DNA of 64,000 nucleotides from a virus (IMGVR_UViG_3300050120_000115:1-64000), one strand, 5' to 3'; shown: positions 2,000 through 14,254, counted from the stretch's first letter. Notes: generated from the letters alone by a model not told the origin. Program-made: numbers and translations.

Positions 2000-2196
2000 G
2001 CGTCCACGTACACTTCTGTTTCTTGTTGAAACCTAAACTCTTCCACTTTGCATCTTCCTTCTACTAGGTCCTCATGATCCCATGGGATGTTATTATTGAT
2101 CTTTAGTTCACGAATTATCTTATTCAATTTCAATATCTTTCCCTCTAGCCGCAAAATGTTTGGAGCTTCAGGACTTGAATATGTTGGTATTCTCAT
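1996..2196 (-). CDS. hypothetical protein
   Basis: translationally coupled between rtcB and the next gene. Confidence 0.6.
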   Translation of the reverse strand: MRIPTYSSPEAPNILRLEGKILKLNKIIRELKINNNIPWDHEDLVEGRCKVEEFRFQQETEVYVDA

Positions 2197-4301
2197 TATT
2201 TGACTCCTTTATAATTTAGGATTTGATGGAGACGATGATCGATGCGGGTTAGTTCCTTCTGGTTCTCCATAACTTCGTCAATAGATTTGTAGGCTAGCGG
2301 AGATTCATCGAGCAGTTGCTCAGCGTCTCTGTCATTCCACGACTTTCCTGCCATGGCCTCATTAAGTCCTTCAACTGTTAGGGTCTTCTTTGCGGCCCCC
2401 CGAGACAAACGACGACCAGCCCCGTGAGAAGACGAGTTGAATGACTGCGGGTTGCCAAGTCCGGTAGTGATGAAGGAGGCCGCTCCCATACTTCCCGGAA
2501 TAACTCCCCGGTCGCCCTTGTCGGCTTTGATTGCCCCCTTGCGTGTTACCCATAATCTCTTCCCATCGTAAGTCTCTTGCGCTGTGAAGTTATGGTGGCA
2601 GTTGATCTTCTCCTCTGCCTTAACGCCCTCGCCGTCGAAACCATTTTTATTCATGAAGTTTTGTACGGCCTCGAATGCGCCGTTCATCATAACCTCACGG
2701 TTCTGTAGAGCCCATGACTGAGCCCATAGAAGGTCAGCAATATAGGCGTTGAAGTCCTTATTCCCCTCCAAGAAGTATGCAAGATCGGGGTCAGGTAGCC
2801 TCTCACCCATCTCTTGCATAAGGGTCTTGGCGATTTTGATATGGTACGTCGCCAGTTGATTTCCAATTCCCCGAGAGCCAGAATGGAGAACTAGCCATAC
2901 ACGATCTAATTCGTCTAAGCATACCTCCACAAAGTGGTTACCAGCACCTAGGGTTCCCATCTGGTCGGTAATCGTGTTGATCTGTTTTCCAGTAAGCTTC
3001 GTAGATCCGTTATATGACGGAACCTTTTTGGTATGGCGCATACGATCCCAGTCAGAGGCGAACTCGTGTCCTTGGCCAACGCCGGAAGGAACAGCCTTAC
3101 GAATCAGGCCATGTAACTCTCCAAGGTCGTCAGGTAGATCGTTAGAGGTAAGATTTAGACGCATAGCGATCATCCCGCAGTTGTGTACGAACACTCCAGC
3201 AGCCAGTGCAAAGTTACCGAACTCTGGAACGTTCAGACAATATACGTCTTCAGTATTAGAAGTAATCTCTACAGAGATTACTTTGTGGTTAGACATCGCA
3301 TGTTCACGCTGCTTATGCCAACGATGGGAAGCAAGGTTTTTGCTTTCTTCTCCACAGTCATCGCAAACTTTAGTGCTTACGTTTGCTTTGGCCAAAAACG
3401 GCGCTCCTCGCTCTCCGTTACCGGCTACAGAAGCTATCCACTCTTCGTGATGTTCTTCCATATAACGAGTAATGTTTTCAGTTCCAACACGAGCACGCTT
3501 CCCCTTTATTATGGGGTTAGCGTTAGAAACCCTCATGCCTTCAAGACGCTTTTCCTGAAATAGCAGATCACTATTATCAAACTTCTTTCCCACAGATCGG
3601 TGGTAAGCAGAATGAGCGGCAGCTGTCATTGAAGTAAGGTTTTCGATACGGTTATCGAAGTGGCAGTGGTTTAGGTGATGCACAACATCACCTTTCTGTG
3701 CAGGGCCATTGAATTGTTCCCATATACGAACATGGGTCATCTTACCATCGCCAGTTCCGGTGTGAGCACTCTCATAGCCATCACGGGTTGACCACTTGCG
3801 ATATAGGGGCATTAGACTATCATTGAACTTTAGGTCTTTAGCTTCTCTGTACGTACCGTCTCTTAGCATAAACTGGTGATCAGGAGTGCAGACGATCTCT
3901 TCTCCACCAGAAATTATTACACGCATTAACCCCGCGTTTTGTCGTGTCAGGTGTGCCGTAGCAAGACCTGCAACAATTTCATGGTTTTCATCAAGAGAAT
4001 AAACCCAAAAAGGGTCACGCCCTACAAGGTTTTTTAAGGTCTCTTGTCTGCCGTCAAGGAGTGGCACTTTTGTATCACCAACAAAACAGCCGATATCCAC
4101 ACCTACCGCATAAGGAATTATTGCCCCATCTGTTGCAATTACGGAACCAACTGGTACACCGTATCCCTGGTGACCGTCAGCCATAACCGCTACTGGCTTA
4201 GCGACGAACGGAAGCTTGGCTACATTAGTAGCCTGCTGTACGGCACCGGCCTCCAAATTAGGGTCCCAGCTCAGTACATCTGGTGTTAATAGTTCTGGCA
4301 T
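2196..4301 (-). CDS. rtcB: RtcB RNA ligase containing an intein
   Basis: MADGHQGYGVPVGSV, VGVDIG|CG, GTLGAGNHFVE, LHSGSRG, CHHN, RKGA, PGSMG, SHGAGR, DESPLAYK motifs. Confidence 0.95.
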   Translation of the reverse strand: MPELLTPDVLSWDPNLEAGAVQQATNVAKLPFVAKPVAVMADGHQGYGVPVGSVIATDGAIIPYAVGVDIGCFVGDTKVPLLDGRQETLKNLVGRDPFWVYSLDENHEIVAGLATAHLTRQNAGLMRVIISGGEEIVCTPDHQFMLRDGTYREAKDLKFNDSLMPLYRKWSTRDGYESAHTGTGDGKMTHVRIWEQFNGPAQKGDVVHHLNHCHFDNRIENLTSMTAAAHSAYHRSVGKKFDNSDLLFQEKRLEGMRVSNANPIIKGKRARVGTENITRYMEEHHEEWIASVAGNGERGAPFLAKANVSTKVCDDCGEESKNLASHRWHKQREHAMSNHKVISVEITSNTEDVYCLNVPEFGNFALAAGVFVHNCGMIAMRLNLTSNDLPDDLGELHGLIRKAVPSGVGQGHEFASDWDRMRHTKKVPSYNGSTKLTGKQINTITDQMGTLGAGNHFVEVCLDELDRVWLVLHSGSRGIGNQLATYHIKIAKTLMQEMGERLPDPDLAYFLEGNKDFNAYIADLLWAQSWALQNREVMMNGAFEAVQNFMNKNGFDGEGVKAEEKINCHHNFTAQETYDGKRLWVTRKGAIKADKGDRGVIPGSMGAASFITTGLGNPQSFNSSSHGAGRRLSRGAAKKTLTVEGLNEAMAGKSWNDRDAEQLLDESPLAYKSIDEVMENQKELTRIDHRLHQILNYKGVK
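3180..4088 (-). mobile_element. intein (303 aa) with HNH homing endonuclease and a C2H2-like finger
   Basis: starts CFVGDTKV, block B CTPDHQF, ends VFVHN before extein Cys; internal HVRIWE...VVHHLNHCHFDNRIENL; CDDC...HRWHKQREH. Confidence 0.93.
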
Positions 4302-4303
4302 TG

Positions 4304-4456
4304 TTAGTAGTTCCTTGCTCCGATGTCCATAAATAAGTATCCAACTAAGTAAGATCCTATCATGAATACGTAACGCCATGTTGGTATATGTGTTAAGAAT
4401 AGTTCGGTTCCAAATACCATAGACATACCTGCTGGGATTTTGTATCTAAGCTTCAT
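4304..4456 (-). CDS. small membrane protein
   Basis: 50 aa, two hydrophobic stretches, AAGGGG RBS. Confidence 0.55.
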   Translation of the reverse strand: MKLRYKIPAGMSMVFGTELFLTHIPTWRYVFMIGSYLVGYLFMDIGARNY

Positions 4457-9635: not shown

Positions 9636-10640
9636 TTACTTCTTTATTCTTCTACGGTACCTGGCATGAACCTGACCACGAGATACATCAAGTTTTTTTC
9701 CAGTACCAGCAAATCCGAGTTCTTCAATCATTTTTGATAATTCTATATCTGTGGGCCAGTCTATCGTCTTAGGACCGAAATAGCAAGTTCCACAGAGTCC
9801 GGTTTTTGAGTCCTTTCTCACTATCTTGCCGCAACCAGAACACGTAGGTTTATCCTCCGGCCCAATCCTAGGGCGAGGAGGAGCGGAACTGGCGACCAAC
9901 CCCTCTACCCTAGACTTTAGGTATTTGCGAATTGCATTATCAGTAACGCCCAACTCATCTGCTACACCAGTATATGTTCCCCTCGAAAGCCTTTCCACTA
10001 GTTCTTCGACTGAAGGCCACACTATCTTCGGCTTGGCCATTTGCGTAGCTATGCAATTCCTGCACAACCCAAGTGGGGTTCCCGAGTTAATCTTTCTTCC
10101 ACACTTAGAACAATTGGTTTTTTCATGAATAATTTCACCAAATAGTCCTCTTTTTACTGTAGTCTTTATGTTCTTTTTTGCTGCGTATGTGTCTGTCTGT
10201 GAATGACAATTGGGGCAAAGAAATCGAAGATTCTCGATTCTGTTATCGGTCCCGACTCCATTGATGTGATCCACCTGCAGAACCAATAAACGCTTTTTCC
10301 ATACCGGAGGCAAAGAGCACTTAAAGCATTTATGCTCCACTCCTGACTCTATCAGCGCTCGTCTAATAGAATATACAGATGTCCGACGTGACCCTTCAGG
10401 AAGAAGAACAAGAATTTCTGTGGGAATTTTCTTTCTGCTATCCGATTTATTTCCGTAACGCGGAACCCCCTTCTGAAAGTGATTAATATCAATCCCAGCT
10501 TTGGAAATTCTTTGAGACCAGTGTCGATGACTCGACCCACTGATACTTTTCCCCAACCTACGTATGACATCCGATACATTCGTAGCGTCCTTAACAACGA
10601 CACAAAGTTCTTCATCTGATACTGTTCTTGCTCTAGCCAT
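9636..10640 (-). CDS. HNH homing endonuclease 2 (duplicated Zn-ribbon/HTH tail)
   Basis: CFKC...LQVDHINGVGTDNRIENLRFLCPNCHSQT; two CxxC..CxxC + WP(S/T) modules. Confidence 0.9.
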   Translation of the reverse strand: MARARTVSDEELCVVVKDATNVSDVIRRLGKSISGSSHRHWSQRISKAGIDINHFQKGVPRYGNKSDSRKKIPTEILVLLPEGSRRTSVYSIRRALIESGVEHKCFKCSLPPVWKKRLLVLQVDHINGVGTDNRIENLRFLCPNCHSQTDTYAAKKNIKTTVKRGLFGEIIHEKTNCSKCGRKINSGTPLGLCRNCIATQMAKPKIVWPSVEELVERLSRGTYTGVADELGVTDNAIRKYLKSRVEGLVASSAPPRPRIGPEDKPTCSGCGKIVRKDSKTGLCGTCYFGPKTIDWPTDIELSKMIEELGFAGTGKKLDVSRGQVHARYRRRIKK

Positions 10641-10646
10641 ACCTAC

Positions 10647-10674
10647 AGTATAGCACATTATATGGTAATGTCAA
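10647..10674 (-). promoter_or_regulatory. leaderless promoter of HNH2
   Basis: TTGACA-N16-TATACT-N6-ATG with TGn. Confidence 0.8.
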
Positions 10675-11664: not shown

Positions 11665-12375
11665 TTACTTCTTTACTTCTGGTCCTCTCTTGCGTGGTAC
11701 CCAAACTCCATGTTTTTTTAAGTGTTTTTTCACAGAGTTTCCATTAACTCCTAAACTTTTACCAAGAGCATACACACTCGTTGATTCAAGACTTTCAAGA
11801 AGTTGTTCAATAGAAGGCCATTCTATACTGGTGGGCCTATTAGAACATCCACGACATCTAAGTGTTTTAGAGCCTCTAGTTACTTTAGACCCGCATTTTT
11901 CACACTCCCATTTTTTCTTATTTCTAAAAGTGTCTGTTTGAGAGTGACAATTAGGACAAAGAAAACGAAGATTCTCTATTCTATTATCATTTTTCTCTCC
12001 ATTTATATGATCAATTTCAAGAACTAGTTCTCTTCCATTCCAAGAATTGCCAACCTTACAGTTCATACCAGCACACTTATGTAAAACTCCTACAGAAAAC
12101 ATTGCCTTACGTAGCCTCAAGGTTGAAACTCTTAAATTTTCTTTCGGATGTATCTTTAAAACTTCTGGTAACAACATACTGGGTTTACTTTTTAGATTAT
12201 TTTTCGTGTCAACTCGAACAAAATGACTTGTATCTATCCCTGCAGACCTAGCCCTTGCAGCATAAGAATTGTACATATTACCATGTGGTATTCTTCCAAG
12301 TTTCTTTAGTGTTTCCCCCATAGAAGTAGATGTTAAAACTGCCTCTTTTAGTTCGTTATCTGTTACTCTTTTCAT
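11665..12375 (-). CDS. HNH homing endonuclease 3
   Basis: LEIDHINGEKNDNRIENLRFLCPNCHSQT, Zn ribbon, WPS-HTH; leaderless start. Confidence 0.9.
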   Translation of the reverse strand: MKRVTDNELKEAVLTSTSMGETLKKLGRIPHGNMYNSYAARARSAGIDTSHFVRVDTKNNLKSKPSMLLPEVLKIHPKENLRVSTLRLRKAMFSVGVLHKCAGMNCKVGNSWNGRELVLEIDHINGEKNDNRIENLRFLCPNCHSQTDTFRNKKKWECEKCGSKVTRGSKTLRCRGCSNRPTSIEWPSIEQLLESLESTSVYALGKSLGVNGNSVKKHLKKHGVWVPRKRGPEVKK

Positions 12376-12420
12376 ACCTACACTATACACCCTCTGTCAA
12401 GGGTTTAAGGTGCAAAATAG

Positions 12421-12493
12421 TCCCCCCGGAGAGATTTGAACTCCCACCTTCTGGGTAAAAGCCAGTAACGCTACCAGGTTACGCCACAGAGGG
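12421..12493 (-). tRNA. tRNA-Lys(UUU)
   Basis: ACTGG-CT TTT AC-CCAGA. Confidence 0.85.
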
Positions 12494-12506
12494 TTAAAAT
12501 ACTGCG

Positions 12507-12578
12507 TCTGATTGGGAGGATTCGAACCTCCAGCCCCTCGGTCCCAAACCGAGTGCCATACCATTAGGCCACAACCAG
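12507..12578 (-). tRNA. tRNA-Pro(UGG)
   Basis: CTCGG-TT TGG GA-CCGAG. Confidence 0.9.
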
Positions 12579-12593
12579 TTGATACTACATATT

Positions 12594-12691
12594 TCGAACA
12601 CGGGGGGCGCTCTACCGTTGAGCTACACTAGCCCTCCGGTTTTTACACCATTGGCTAGAGGCTGGATTCGAACCAGCAACCTCCCCCCTCG
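12594..12691 (-). ncRNA. circularly permuted tRNA-like RNA (YrlA/Y-RNA-like or permuted tRNA gene)
   Basis: order GGGGGG-AGGTT-[GCTGG TTCGAAT CCAGC]-CTCTAGCC-19-nt linker-GGCTAGTG-TA-[GCTC AACGGTA GAGC]-G-CCCCCC. Confidence 0.8.
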
Positions 12692-12767
12692 CAGTCCTAA
12701 TGGGATTTGAACCCATGATCTCTACCTTGACGGGGTAGCGCTTTGAACCAAACTAAGCTACAGAACC
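12692..12767 (-). tRNA. tRNA-Asp(GUC)
   Basis: CTACC-CC GTC AA-GGTAG; G73. Confidence 0.88.
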
Positions 12768-12789
12768 ATGCTTTACTTCTTACTACTAG

Positions 12790-12875
12790 AGGAAGCGGTA
12801 GGATTCGAACCCACGGTGGCTCAGCACCACATCAATTTTCAAGATTGCAGCCTTAATCCGCTCGGCCACGCTTCC
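12790..12875 (-). tRNA. tRNA-Ser(UGA)
   Basis: CAAT-CT TGA AA-ATTG, variable arm. Confidence 0.9.
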
Positions 12876-12934
12876 ATGTTGAAGGACCCACGTTGCGTCC
12901 ACTGCCCCCTGTGATCTGGGGATAAAGCCCTTCG

Positions 12935-13006
12935 TACTGTTAAAGGGAATTGAACCCTTCTTACAAGGTTGAGAACCTTGCGTCTTGACCACTAGACGAT
13001 AACAGC
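12935..13006 (-). tRNA. tRNA-Glu(CUC)
   Basis: CAAGG-TT CTC AA-CCTTG. Confidence 0.9.
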
Positions 13007-13092
13007 AAGTACCCTGGGACGCTACCCCCATCCTCCGTATCTCGATCCTTGCGTCCAAGGGTACTTAATACGGCGTGCGCTTACACCACTAG

Positions 13093-13165
13093 CAGTCTGA
13101 CGGAGACTCGAACTCCGGCTACAAGGGTGAAAACCTTGCGTCCTAGGCCACTAGACGACCAGACC
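13093..13165 (-). tRNA. tRNA-Glu(UUC)
   Basis: CAAGG-TT TTC AC-CCTTG. Confidence 0.9.
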
Positions 13166-13236
13166 ATGTGAAGTAATAAGATGGGTTCACTCATCACCCG
13201 TGCCCCACCGAGACCGTGGGTGTACCTATTACTTCG

Positions 13237-13309
13237 AGCCTTAGACAGGATTCGAACCTGCGAGCCTCCTAGTTGGCAACCAGGCGTTCTTCCGCTGAAC
13301 TACTAAGAC
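13237..13309 (-). tRNA. tRNA-Gly(GCC)
   Basis: CCTGG-TT GCC AA-CTAGG; U73. Confidence 0.88.
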
Positions 13310-13320
13310 TTGTTACTTCG

Positions 13321-13391
13321 TCGGGCAAGAGGGAATCGAACCCTCGACACCTACTTGGAAGGAAGGTGTTATACCACTTAACTACAACCCG
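13321..13391 (-). tRNA. tRNA-Gly(UCC)
   Basis: loop CT TCC AA; GAGGG-TTCGATT-CCCTC. Confidence 0.82.
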
Positions 13392-13497
13392 ATAATTTAC
13401 TACGATTACAGTATAGCATAACTTCTGCTACTTTGTGTTACAACTGCATTACAATCTTACTTCGCGGGAAATGGCTCCTAGAACCCGCTTCCCCCCG

Positions 13498-13569
13498 TGC
13501 CAATTGAGAGAATCGAACTCCCGACCCCTCCCATACCAAGGGAGTATTCCACCACTGAACTAAAAAGGC
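13498..13569 (-). tRNA. tRNA-Thr(GGU)
   Basis: CTCCC-TT GGT AT-GGGAG. Confidence 0.88.
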
Positions 13570-13582
13570 ATTAGTACTTCAG

Positions 13583-13653
13583 TTCCCCCGGACGGATTCG
13601 AACCGCCGCCTCCAATTCACGAAATTGGAGTTCTCCCGCTAAACTACAAGGGA
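13583..13653 (-). tRNA. tRNA-Thr(CGU)
   Basis: CCAAT-TT CGT GA-ATTGG. Confidence 0.8.
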
Positions 13654-13658
13654 ATGCG

Positions 13659-13731
13659 TGCCCCACTTCGGGTTTGAACCGAAAGCCGCCTGGTTACAAA
13701 TCAGGTGCACGTCCAATTGTGCTTCCGGGGC
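13659..13731 (-). tRNA. tRNA-Thr(UGU)
   Basis: loop TT TGT AA; GCCCC/GGGGC acceptor. Confidence 0.85.
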
Positions 13732-13819
13732 ATGTAAAACAAAAGAGCGCAAGAACCAATAACTACCTTTCCCTCCCGAAAGATAACTACTGGAACTTGC
13801 GCTCCTCGACCATTATTAG

Positions 13820-13893
13820 TGGCGGTGACTGTGAATCGAACACAGGTCAAAACGTTATGAGCGTTCTCGGAGCACCAGCCCCAGCCTCCCGCT
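13820..13893 (-). tRNA. tRNA-Met(CAU), irregular acceptor/D arms (possibly initiator-type)
   Basis: GAACG-CT CAT AA-CGTTT; CTGTG-TTCGATT-CACAG. Confidence 0.7.
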
Positions 13894-14225: not shown

Positions 14226-14254
14226 AGTGTAGCACATGTTTTCCTATTTGTCAA
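14226..14254 (-). promoter_or_regulatory. promoter heading the holin-like gene and tRNA array
   Basis: TTGACA-N17-TACACT with TGn. Confidence 0.8.

Follow-up and report, generated by a model that had tools for sequence, protein, structure and literature searches.

A probable minimal YrlA-type tRNA mimic in the tRNA gene array of a phage that lacks Ro60

Introduction

YrlA RNAs are known from Salmonella Typhimurium, from Mycobacterium smegmatis and from phages that encode Ro60 (PMC4201824), and Y RNA-like RNAs of phages have been described in mycobacteriophages (PMC4201824) and, as Yrl1 and Yrl2, in Thermus phage phiLo (PMC12135203). The YrlA domain is a close mimic of tRNA with a closed acceptor stem, and its conserved T and D stems have been proposed to bind an effector that recognises the elbow with some sequence specificity (10.1101/312249). 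TruB and DusA modify YrlA, and in M. smegmatis, where the stem has 7 bp, RNase P cuts the YrlA and CCA is added to it in vivo (PMC4201824). Chen et al. (2014) used as a criterion for YrlA a Ro60/TROVE gene on the same strand within about 4 kb; they also describe Ro60 in many bacterial phyla, a V stem-loop, opened by YUAY and placed 5' of the T arm, that many but not all YrlA RNAs possess, and the caveat that dimeric tRNAs can mimic YrlA (PMC4201824). A GNCGAAN0-1G motif near the 5' end is the proposed Ro60 contact (PMC4201824, PMC12135203). YrlA-type tRNA mimics, including phage examples beside Ro60, are therefore already known; in the literature that we searched, whose coverage of bacterial Ro60 reviews is possibly incomplete, the phage cases stand only beside Ro60, and modules of Ro60-less phages are undescribed.

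The halves of a tRNA also occur in swapped order in the permuted tRNA genes of Cyanidioschyzon merolae and Thermofilum, where the 3' half lies upstream of the 5' half and a linker stands between the acceptor strands. These genes keep a complete anticodon loop, and cutting at a bulge-helix-bulge followed by ligation turns their transcripts into working tRNAs. In this report, we characterize a small tRNA-shaped RNA encoded on the minus strand between two tRNA genes of an uncultured phage with a genome of ~89 kb. A reading made from the sequence alone had offered two explanations for it, a minimal Y RNA-like tRNA mimic of the phage and a permuted tRNA circularised by the phage's own RtcB. We conclude that the element is an orphan, minimal variant of the known YrlA-type tRNA mimic; what is new, and undescribed in the literature searched, is a YrlA-type domain that stands alone inside the tRNA array of a Ro60-less phage.

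Results

The window, that is, the whole stretch of 64,000 nucleotides that was analysed, holds 31 tRNA genes called by ARAGORN on the minus strand between 6325 and 13890. Two of them, tRNA-Asp(GUC) upstream (12692..12767; ARAGORN, and 61.5 bits with the Rfam tRNA model) and tRNA-Pro(UGG) downstream (12507..12578; ARAGORN and Rfam), are separated by ~112 bases that contain a T arm, an acceptor-like arm and a D arm, and neither ARAGORN nor the Rfam tRNA model calls a tRNA in this gap. The discriminator base of tRNA-Asp abuts the leader of the element with zero spacer (boundary 12692/12691), and the predicted RNA start is 1 nt past tRNA-Asp. In tRNA-Asp itself (12692-12767, minus strand), the anticodon loop reads CCGUCAA and has a C at position 33, where U33 is nearly universal in tRNA anticodon loops, and the acceptor stem contains three G-U pairs.

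From G6 through C6, immediately after tRNA-Asp, the element extends over 12602-12690 on the minus strand, to which all coordinates in this paragraph refer. Its RNA begins with a 3-nt leader, CGA (12689..12691), which is the same in 3/3 homologues. The 5' strand of the closing stem, G6 (12683..12688; sequence and fold), follows at the place of the 3' strand of an anticodon stem, and leads through the 5-nt variable region AGGUU (12678..12682), whose U48 pairs with A15 as the Levitt pair, into the T arm GCUGG/UUCGAAU/CCAGC (12661..12677), for which sequence, Rfam match, fold and the 55-module alignment described below agree. Next comes the closed acceptor-like arm (12626..12660), an 8-pair stem of CUCUAGCC with GGCUAGUG that contains one U-U mismatch; in DNA letters, its 3' strand is CTCTAGCC (12660-12653) and its 5' strand GGCTAGTG (12633-12626), joined by a 19-nt linker (12652-12634) with a 4-bp mini-hairpin inside. 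U8-A9 (TA in DNA, 12625-12624) and the D arm GCUC/AACGGUA/GAGC (12623-12609) together span 12609..12625 and include A14, A15, G18, G19 and A21. G26 (12608) and the closing-stem 3' strand C6 (12607-12602) complete the domain (12602..12608; sequence, fold and 55-module alignment), the acceptor strands, U8-A9, the D arm and G26 being placed from the sequence and the D arm being backed also by Rfam match, fold and 55-module alignment. A 23-nt tail then runs into tRNA-Pro; it consists of the element-specific 3' overhang GUGUUC (12596..12601), which is RUGUWM over the three homologues, and of a generic inter-tRNA spacer motif, GAARUA...GYAGUAYCAW (12579..12595). Every tRNA part that the sequence-only reading had named after tRNA-Asp was found where that reading had put it; the closing stem, which it had called short, consists of 5-6 G:C pairs and is conserved.

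The minimum-free-energy fold of the element is a permuted cloverleaf of -44 kcal/mol (z = -2.34; 4/200 shuffles fold as well), in which G6 pairs with C6, acceptor strand pairs with acceptor strand, and the T and D hairpins form. In the search with Rfam models that the sequence-only reading had suggested, the tRNA model was unmatched and the YrlA model (RF02553) matched over its full length with 33.3 bits (E = 1e-5 in a 321-nt search); the gathering score of RF02553 is 69 bits, and the element is absent from the Rfam matches at that threshold. TROVE-linked phage modules scored 30.8-47.9 bits in 10/10 tested, and TROVE-less modules scored 31.4-43.6 bits in 7/10, the other 3/10 being unmatched at E <= 0.01. 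Since 10/10 TROVE-linked modules also lie under this score, the threshold has little discriminating power for phages, and it fails to separate TROVE-linked from TROVE-less modules.

We also built two covariance models. Model R1, made from nine modules, gave 68.5 bits for the element and no more than 37 bits for any tandem-tRNA junction of 43 sources; model R2, whose rows exclude the window's lineage, gave the element 61.7 bits versus at most 38.6 bits for any tandem-tRNA junction in the window. These score gaps answer the dimeric-tRNA caveat of Chen et al. (PMC4201824). The element shares with tandem ('dimeric') tRNA genes the succession of T arm and D arm on the same strand, but its T-arm half has no 5' half and its D-arm half no 3' half, its acceptor strands pair mutually, and its G6 pairs with its C6. 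The element is a real, conserved RNA gene, neither a chance arrangement nor a tandem-tRNA artefact.

Relatives of the phage were found through the terminase, in contigs L003 (85% identical to the terminase of the window) and L006 (68% identical), and both carry a homologue of the element in the same Asp-to-Pro slot. The sample of the element's own lineage consists of these three distinct sequences (window, L003 and L006): a further scan of viral contigs and one metagenome scan gave only the L003 and L006 contigs plus one short contig, which scores the same as L006. Between the window and L003 or L006, the flanking tRNA-Asp and tRNA-Pro are only 50-66% identical. The T stem is GCUGG/CCAGC in the window and GCGGG/CCCGU in both L003 and L006, and the Levitt pair is A15:U48 in the window and L003 and G15:C48 in L006. 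The acceptor-like arm has 8 pairs with one U-U mismatch and a linker with a small hairpin in the window, 7 pairs with one mismatch and a UUCG-capped extension in L003, and 8 positions capped directly by UUCG, with no linker, in L006; the linkers of the window and L003 measure 19-22 nt and are predicted to fold as capped extensions of the arm. Compensating changes thus occur among the three homologues in the T stem, in the acceptor stem and in the Levitt pair, and the covariation among related phages that the sequence-only reading had proposed to look for is present, with the permuted order retained in L003 and L006.

That reading had also named local misassembly as an outcome that would undo it. 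Independent assemblies from other studies cover the element (contigs X2 over 12300-12692, X3 over 12631-12789 and X4 over 12348-12628) and confirm the arrangement, so a local misassembly is unlikely. Two strain variants within the element, both A to G on the RNA, keep the pairing: the one at 12629 turns an acceptor-stem A-U into G-U, and the one at 12592 gives the same base as in L003 and L006. In X2, the 184 bases upstream, with tRNA-Asp and tRNA-Ser, are swapped for 172 others, and the breakpoint (12692/12693) is exactly the 5' edge of the element; therefore, the tRNA cassettes are mosaic and the element behaves as a unit of its own. The terminase of the phage is ~32% identical to those of phages of Arthrobacter, Pelagibacter and Roseobacter, its capsid protein gave no match in a similarity search, its RtcB matches are scattered over many hosts, and nucleotide matches to cultured phages are confined to tRNA genes.

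The 23-nt tail is 70-83% identical in pairwise comparisons among the three homologues, and we considered whether it is a special functional extension. This was rejected: its last 17 nt are a generic spacer motif (GAAGTA/GCAGTA ... ACAT/AAT) that follows most tRNAs in the window, L003 and L006, as in the spacers GAAGTAACAAT, GCAGTAACAAT and TAGTAGTAAGAAGTAAAGCAT, which share this pattern, and in the tail just the RUGUWM beside the stem is specific to the element. As a 22-mer, the motif region at 12579..12595 is unique within the window. A possible 4-bp hairpin in the tail and base pairing between the T loop and the UUCGAA of the tail proved either too weak or unkept in L003, and an outer stem between the 3' strand of tRNA-Asp and the tail, drawn by the Rfam alignment, was rejected as unconserved in L003 and L006. 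The generic tail motif suggests that the element is flanked and processed like the surrounding tRNAs.

Across the arrays (window 12420-13890, minus strand; L003 5078-7120; L006 1103-2745), most inter-tRNA spacers of the lineage start with GAAGTA, GCAGTA or TAGTAG and end with ACAT or AAT; from their sequence, these common ends have the look of a processing signal shared by trailers and leaders. Upstream of the tRNA block that holds the element, a sigma-70-like match to the promoter consensus, TTGACA-17-TACACT, lies at 14226..14254 on the minus strand, and the Met-Thr spacer of L003 and L006 holds sequences that strongly resemble promoters. Several long spacers look structured (window 13166-13235, 13007-13091 and 13392-13496, minus strand), one of them being closed by GAAGTAAT...ATTACTTC. 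The 105-nt Thr-Gly spacer opens with G6 and a CGGG...CCCG hairpin and is, judged by this resemblance, possibly the decayed form of a module. In L003 (5152-5247, minus strand) and L006 (1178-1273, minus strand), the 96-nt spacer that follows tRNA-Pro contains cloverleaf-like sequence, with acceptor-like strands, a D arm and a UUAA-containing loop, and ARAGORN calls no tRNA in either spacer. Two HNH endonuclease ORFs (9636-10658 and 11665-12390, minus strand) lie among the tRNA genes, which is consistent with mobile cassettes.

To place the element in a wider class, viral contigs were scanned with a pattern in which a T loop is followed 12-17 bases on by the start of a D arm, a spacing too short for two separate tRNAs. 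The scan yielded at least 120 stretches, with 80 loci among the matches listed; such modules are common in viral contigs. The pattern fixes part of the T and D arms and their spacing and leaves the acceptor-like arm, three T-stem pairs and the closing stem free. A class alignment was made from the 55 R1 matches of at least 40 bits among the matches listed, which come from 54 sources including the window, L003 and L006. In these 55 modules, 97.1% of 969 cells are standard pairs and 17/19 pairs change on both sides (285 cells), counts that are inflated by the fitting of the structural alignment to the model; 0/500 shuffles reach these pairing values, and the covariation score is 0.650 versus at most 0.138 with the partners slid. 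The helix of the closing stem covaries, with 91.7% of its cells paired in this sample from the matches listed, and all three parts left free by the scan covary. The R15:Y48 pair is kept in 51/55 of these modules, as G15:C48 in 34 and as A15:U48 in 17. Most class members among the matches listed have 3-5 bp acceptor-like arms with tetraloop caps.

Modules also occur head to tail. Three unrelated phages (G003, G004 and G005), found with a G5-AGGU pattern, carry two modules each in this arrangement, and head-to-tail modules in twos to fours are seen at L070/L071 (G003, G004), L072 (G005), L082, L130 and L143; the closing stem of a tandem module is separated from the following module by 0-8 bases. 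In G003 and G004, zero tRNA genes lie within 6 kb of the modules. A further subset lacks TROVE and has a conserved ACAGCAA (GCAGCAA in L147) ~20-25 nt upstream of the module (L114, L115, L116, L123, L131, L144, L147 and L091); several of its members come from phage records of about 175-370 kb, and the subset may be a different, extended family with another partner.

The sequence-only reading had found no Ro60 gene in the window and had proposed a search of the rest of the genome. TROVE (PF05731) gave no match in the full 88,953-bp phage record (G000, the window's genome, CheckV 100% complete), and the control genomes were matched; the gene is thus absent from the complete genome as well. None was found in five further records, namely the relatives G001 and G002 and the unrelated G003, G004 and G005, and G000, G001 and G004 are all TROVE-less records rated 100% complete. 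Among the matches listed, TROVE is present in 22/47 further module-bearing records, usually within about 1 kb of the module where the gene could be placed. In the same set of matches, it is present in 8/20 other module records rated at least 90% complete and absent in 12/20; with G000, G001 and G004 added, it is absent in 15/23 near-complete module-bearing phage records among the matches listed.

The element resembles YrlA in having a closing strand, a variable region, a T arm, a closed acceptor-like stem-loop, U8-A9, a D arm and a second closing strand, in its canonical T-loop and D-loop nucleotides, in the covarying Levitt pair, and in having neither a CCA end nor an anticodon loop. The earlier assignment of a YrlA domain topology therefore holds in the order of the parts, in the full-length RF02553 match and in the nucleotides of the tertiary contacts. 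It differs from YrlA in that no TROVE gene lies within about 4 kb or anywhere in the complete genome, in a closing stem of just 5-6 G:C pairs and in an RNA start 1 nt past a tRNA. No GNCGAAN0-1G lies 5' of the element, because its 5' flank is tRNA-Asp; CGAA occurs solely in the 3' tail, in two of the three homologues (window and L006), and L003 has AGAA. As a discriminator between TROVE-linked and orphan modules, the strict motif was rejected, being found upstream in 2/21 TROVE-linked versus 1/34 orphan modules. The element has no V arm, its variable region being the 5 nt AGGUU. The TROVE-linked phage modules of our sample have in common an upstream GGYG(C)GYAG...GTTACTTC motif and a V arm, and the element is without both. 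Like the Ro60-linked Y RNAs of phages, it is phage-encoded, and the IMG/VR examples share its core of T arm, acceptor-like arm and D arm; unlike it, they lie, where placed, ~1 kb or less from the TROVE gene. A module at L132 (G015, 71,643 bp, direct terminal repeats, 100% complete) has the Ro60-type upstream motif and the V arm in a record in which TROVE was unmatched.

The phage encodes its own RtcB RNA ligase (2196..4379, minus strand), as the sequence-only reading had noted, and we found no specific link between this gene and the element. An intein that carries an HNH endonuclease domain splits the gene, whose ORF thereby has 727 aa; in the closest relative, G001, RtcB is an uninterrupted 436-aa frame. 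RtcB is present in G000, G001 and 3/47 further records, that is, in 5/23 near-complete module records among the matches listed; its link to the element is therefore a trait of the lineage and not of the RNA. A 230-aa frame with a PF09414 RNA-ligase domain (39.3 bits; G000:C1:84012-84566, plus strand, outside the window) raises the possibility of another RNA-repair ligase in addition to RtcB; the PF09511 (RNA_lig_T4_1) profile matched neither the phage nor the controls and is thus uninformative here. The tRNA-intron endonuclease (PF01974) was unmatched in the phage and matched in archaeal controls. The whole inter-tRNA stretch was also given to ARAGORN as a circle, and this re-permuted sequence had no consistent anticodon: with introns allowed, it was called His(gtg) with a 20-nt 'intron' in the window, Met(cat) with a 19-nt 'intron' in L003 and Met(cat) with an 18-nt 'intron' in L006, and without introns Ser, Leu and Ser, respectively.

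Discussion

We consider it likely that the element is a YrlA-type RNA gene cut down to its tRNA-like domain and that it is processed with the tRNA operon; a host protein that reads the tRNA elbow may be its target. In this model, the element would be transcribed within the phage tRNA operon and released by the enzymes that mature its neighbours, through a cut past the discriminator of tRNA-Asp, trailer processing at the GAAGUA-type motif and RNase P cleavage at tRNA-Pro. As shown by covariation, the predicted fold is a tRNA-like L shape with an intact elbow of D and T loops; having neither a CCA end nor an anticodon, the RNA can be neither charged nor decoded nor cut in an anticodon loop. As a stable molecule, it could then compete for, or serve as an adaptor to, some host factor by which the elbow of tRNA and its T and D stems are recognised; this factor may be the effector proposed for the YrlA tRNA-like domain, acting here without a phage Ro60. 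A host Ro60 complex, a form opened by RNase P as in M. smegmatis and a decoy in tRNA-directed defence are possible further options. Of the two explanations offered from the sequence alone, the minimal Y RNA-like tRNA mimic fits the topology, the conserved structure, the covariation of tRNA tertiary pairs and a TROVE-less phage, and the RtcB-circularised permuted tRNA is unsupported.

The element could be a true Y RNA to which the host contributes Ro60 (Rsr) and the phage the RNA, with the 3' overhang or another part as the contact. In favour of this, Ro60 is present in many bacterial phyla (PMC4201824), and the 3' tails of the element in the window and in L006 contain CGAA, the tetramer at the centre of the Ro60 contact that has been proposed; but the tetramer sits within a palindrome, TTCGAA, and is replaced by AGAA in L003. 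The full contact motif is absent 5' of the module, the Rfam-drawn stem with the 3' strand of tRNA-Asp is unkept in L003 and L006, and both the GGYG(C)GYAG...GTTACTTC motif and the V arm of TROVE-linked phage modules are lacking, so that we regard this partnership as unlikely. An RNA opened like the YrlA of M. smegmatis, in which RNase P cuts the linker and the 3' strand is trimmed and given CCA to make a two-piece tRNA-like molecule, has that RNA as its precedent (PMC4201824) and would suit the window and L003, whose 7-8 bp acceptor stems stand on a 5-bp T stem and are joined by 19-22-nt linkers. It would not suit L006, where the stem is closed by UUCG without a linker; moreover, the linkers of the window and L003 fold as capped extensions of the arm, most class members among the matches listed have 3-5 bp arms with tetraloops, and CCA is not encoded, and we judge such opening to be improbable.

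A remnant of a tRNA duplication and rearrangement, perhaps of a tRNA-Asp broken in its anticodon loop, would agree with the mosaic arrays, where the upstream cassette of X2 was swapped exactly at the edge of the element, with the position next to tRNA-Asp, and with the CGA and RUGU on either side, in which a former GUC anticodon loop may survive. A non-functional relic is nevertheless very unlikely, as the element is conserved although the neighbouring tRNAs are just 50-66% identical to those of the window, compensatory changes preserve the Levitt pair and all four helices, the acceptor arm has acquired new caps in the form of stable tetraloops, and the same architecture recurs in many unrelated phages. 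The same conserved leader and tail bear on whether this is a genuine circularly permuted tRNA gene, whose ends RtcB or an Rnl2-like ligase would join into an anticodon loop before RNase P/Z opens the linker: exact joining of CGA to RUGU would give a loop of 7 nt with the same anticodon, GUC, as the adjacent tRNA-Asp, the order is that of 3' half, linker and 5' half with mutually pairing acceptor strands, and the phage encodes both RtcB and the PF09414 RNA-ligase-like ORF. Such joining would require exact trimming of 19 conserved tail bases, for which we know of no enzyme, and the GUC spelling is possibly a vestige of an origin from a tRNA-Asp gene and not evidence of ligation. The element also differs from the permuted genes of C. 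merolae and Thermofilum in having no anticodon loop, no endonuclease gene in its phage and no consistent anticodon: its closing stem ends in a 3-nt leader and the 3' tail, and the anticodons on the hypothetical circles disagree among the three homologues. To our knowledge, bacterial hosts generally have no tRNA-intron endonuclease, and RNase P/Z leave 5'-phosphate and 3'-hydroxyl ends, which RtcB, as far as we know, does not join, so that the ends would be unfit for it. Removal of the linker by RNase P/Z to leave a discriminator is possible for the window (19 nt) and L003 and implausible for L006, whose UUCG cap speaks for an acceptor arm that is to remain closed. Tandem modules of other phages adjoin without loop bases, and RtcB is found in just 5/23 near-complete module records among the matches listed. 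We therefore hold a permuted tRNA gene to be extremely unlikely.

The YrlA-type mimic released from the tRNA operon thus remains our preferred reading, and it has consequences for annotation and for the study of YrlA. RNAs of this kind fall below the Rfam threshold, are missed by tRNA finders and can be mistaken for broken or tandem tRNAs in arrays. The domain often lies inside tRNA arrays or in tandem copies, and its retention alone, by phages that have no Ro60 gene, suggests that it has a function of its own. We speculate, as a tentative and rather doubtful extension, that minimal YrlA-type modules without a Ro60 module, the present element among them, are a distinct class of RNAs, widespread in phages, which are excised from tRNA operons by host enzymes of tRNA processing and serve, independently of Ro60, as sponges for an elbow-reading host protein; if so, the target might be, for example, a tRNA-targeting immune nuclease or an enzyme of tRNA maturation or quality control. 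The Ro60-less phages that carry these modules are compact natural baits for finding the effector.
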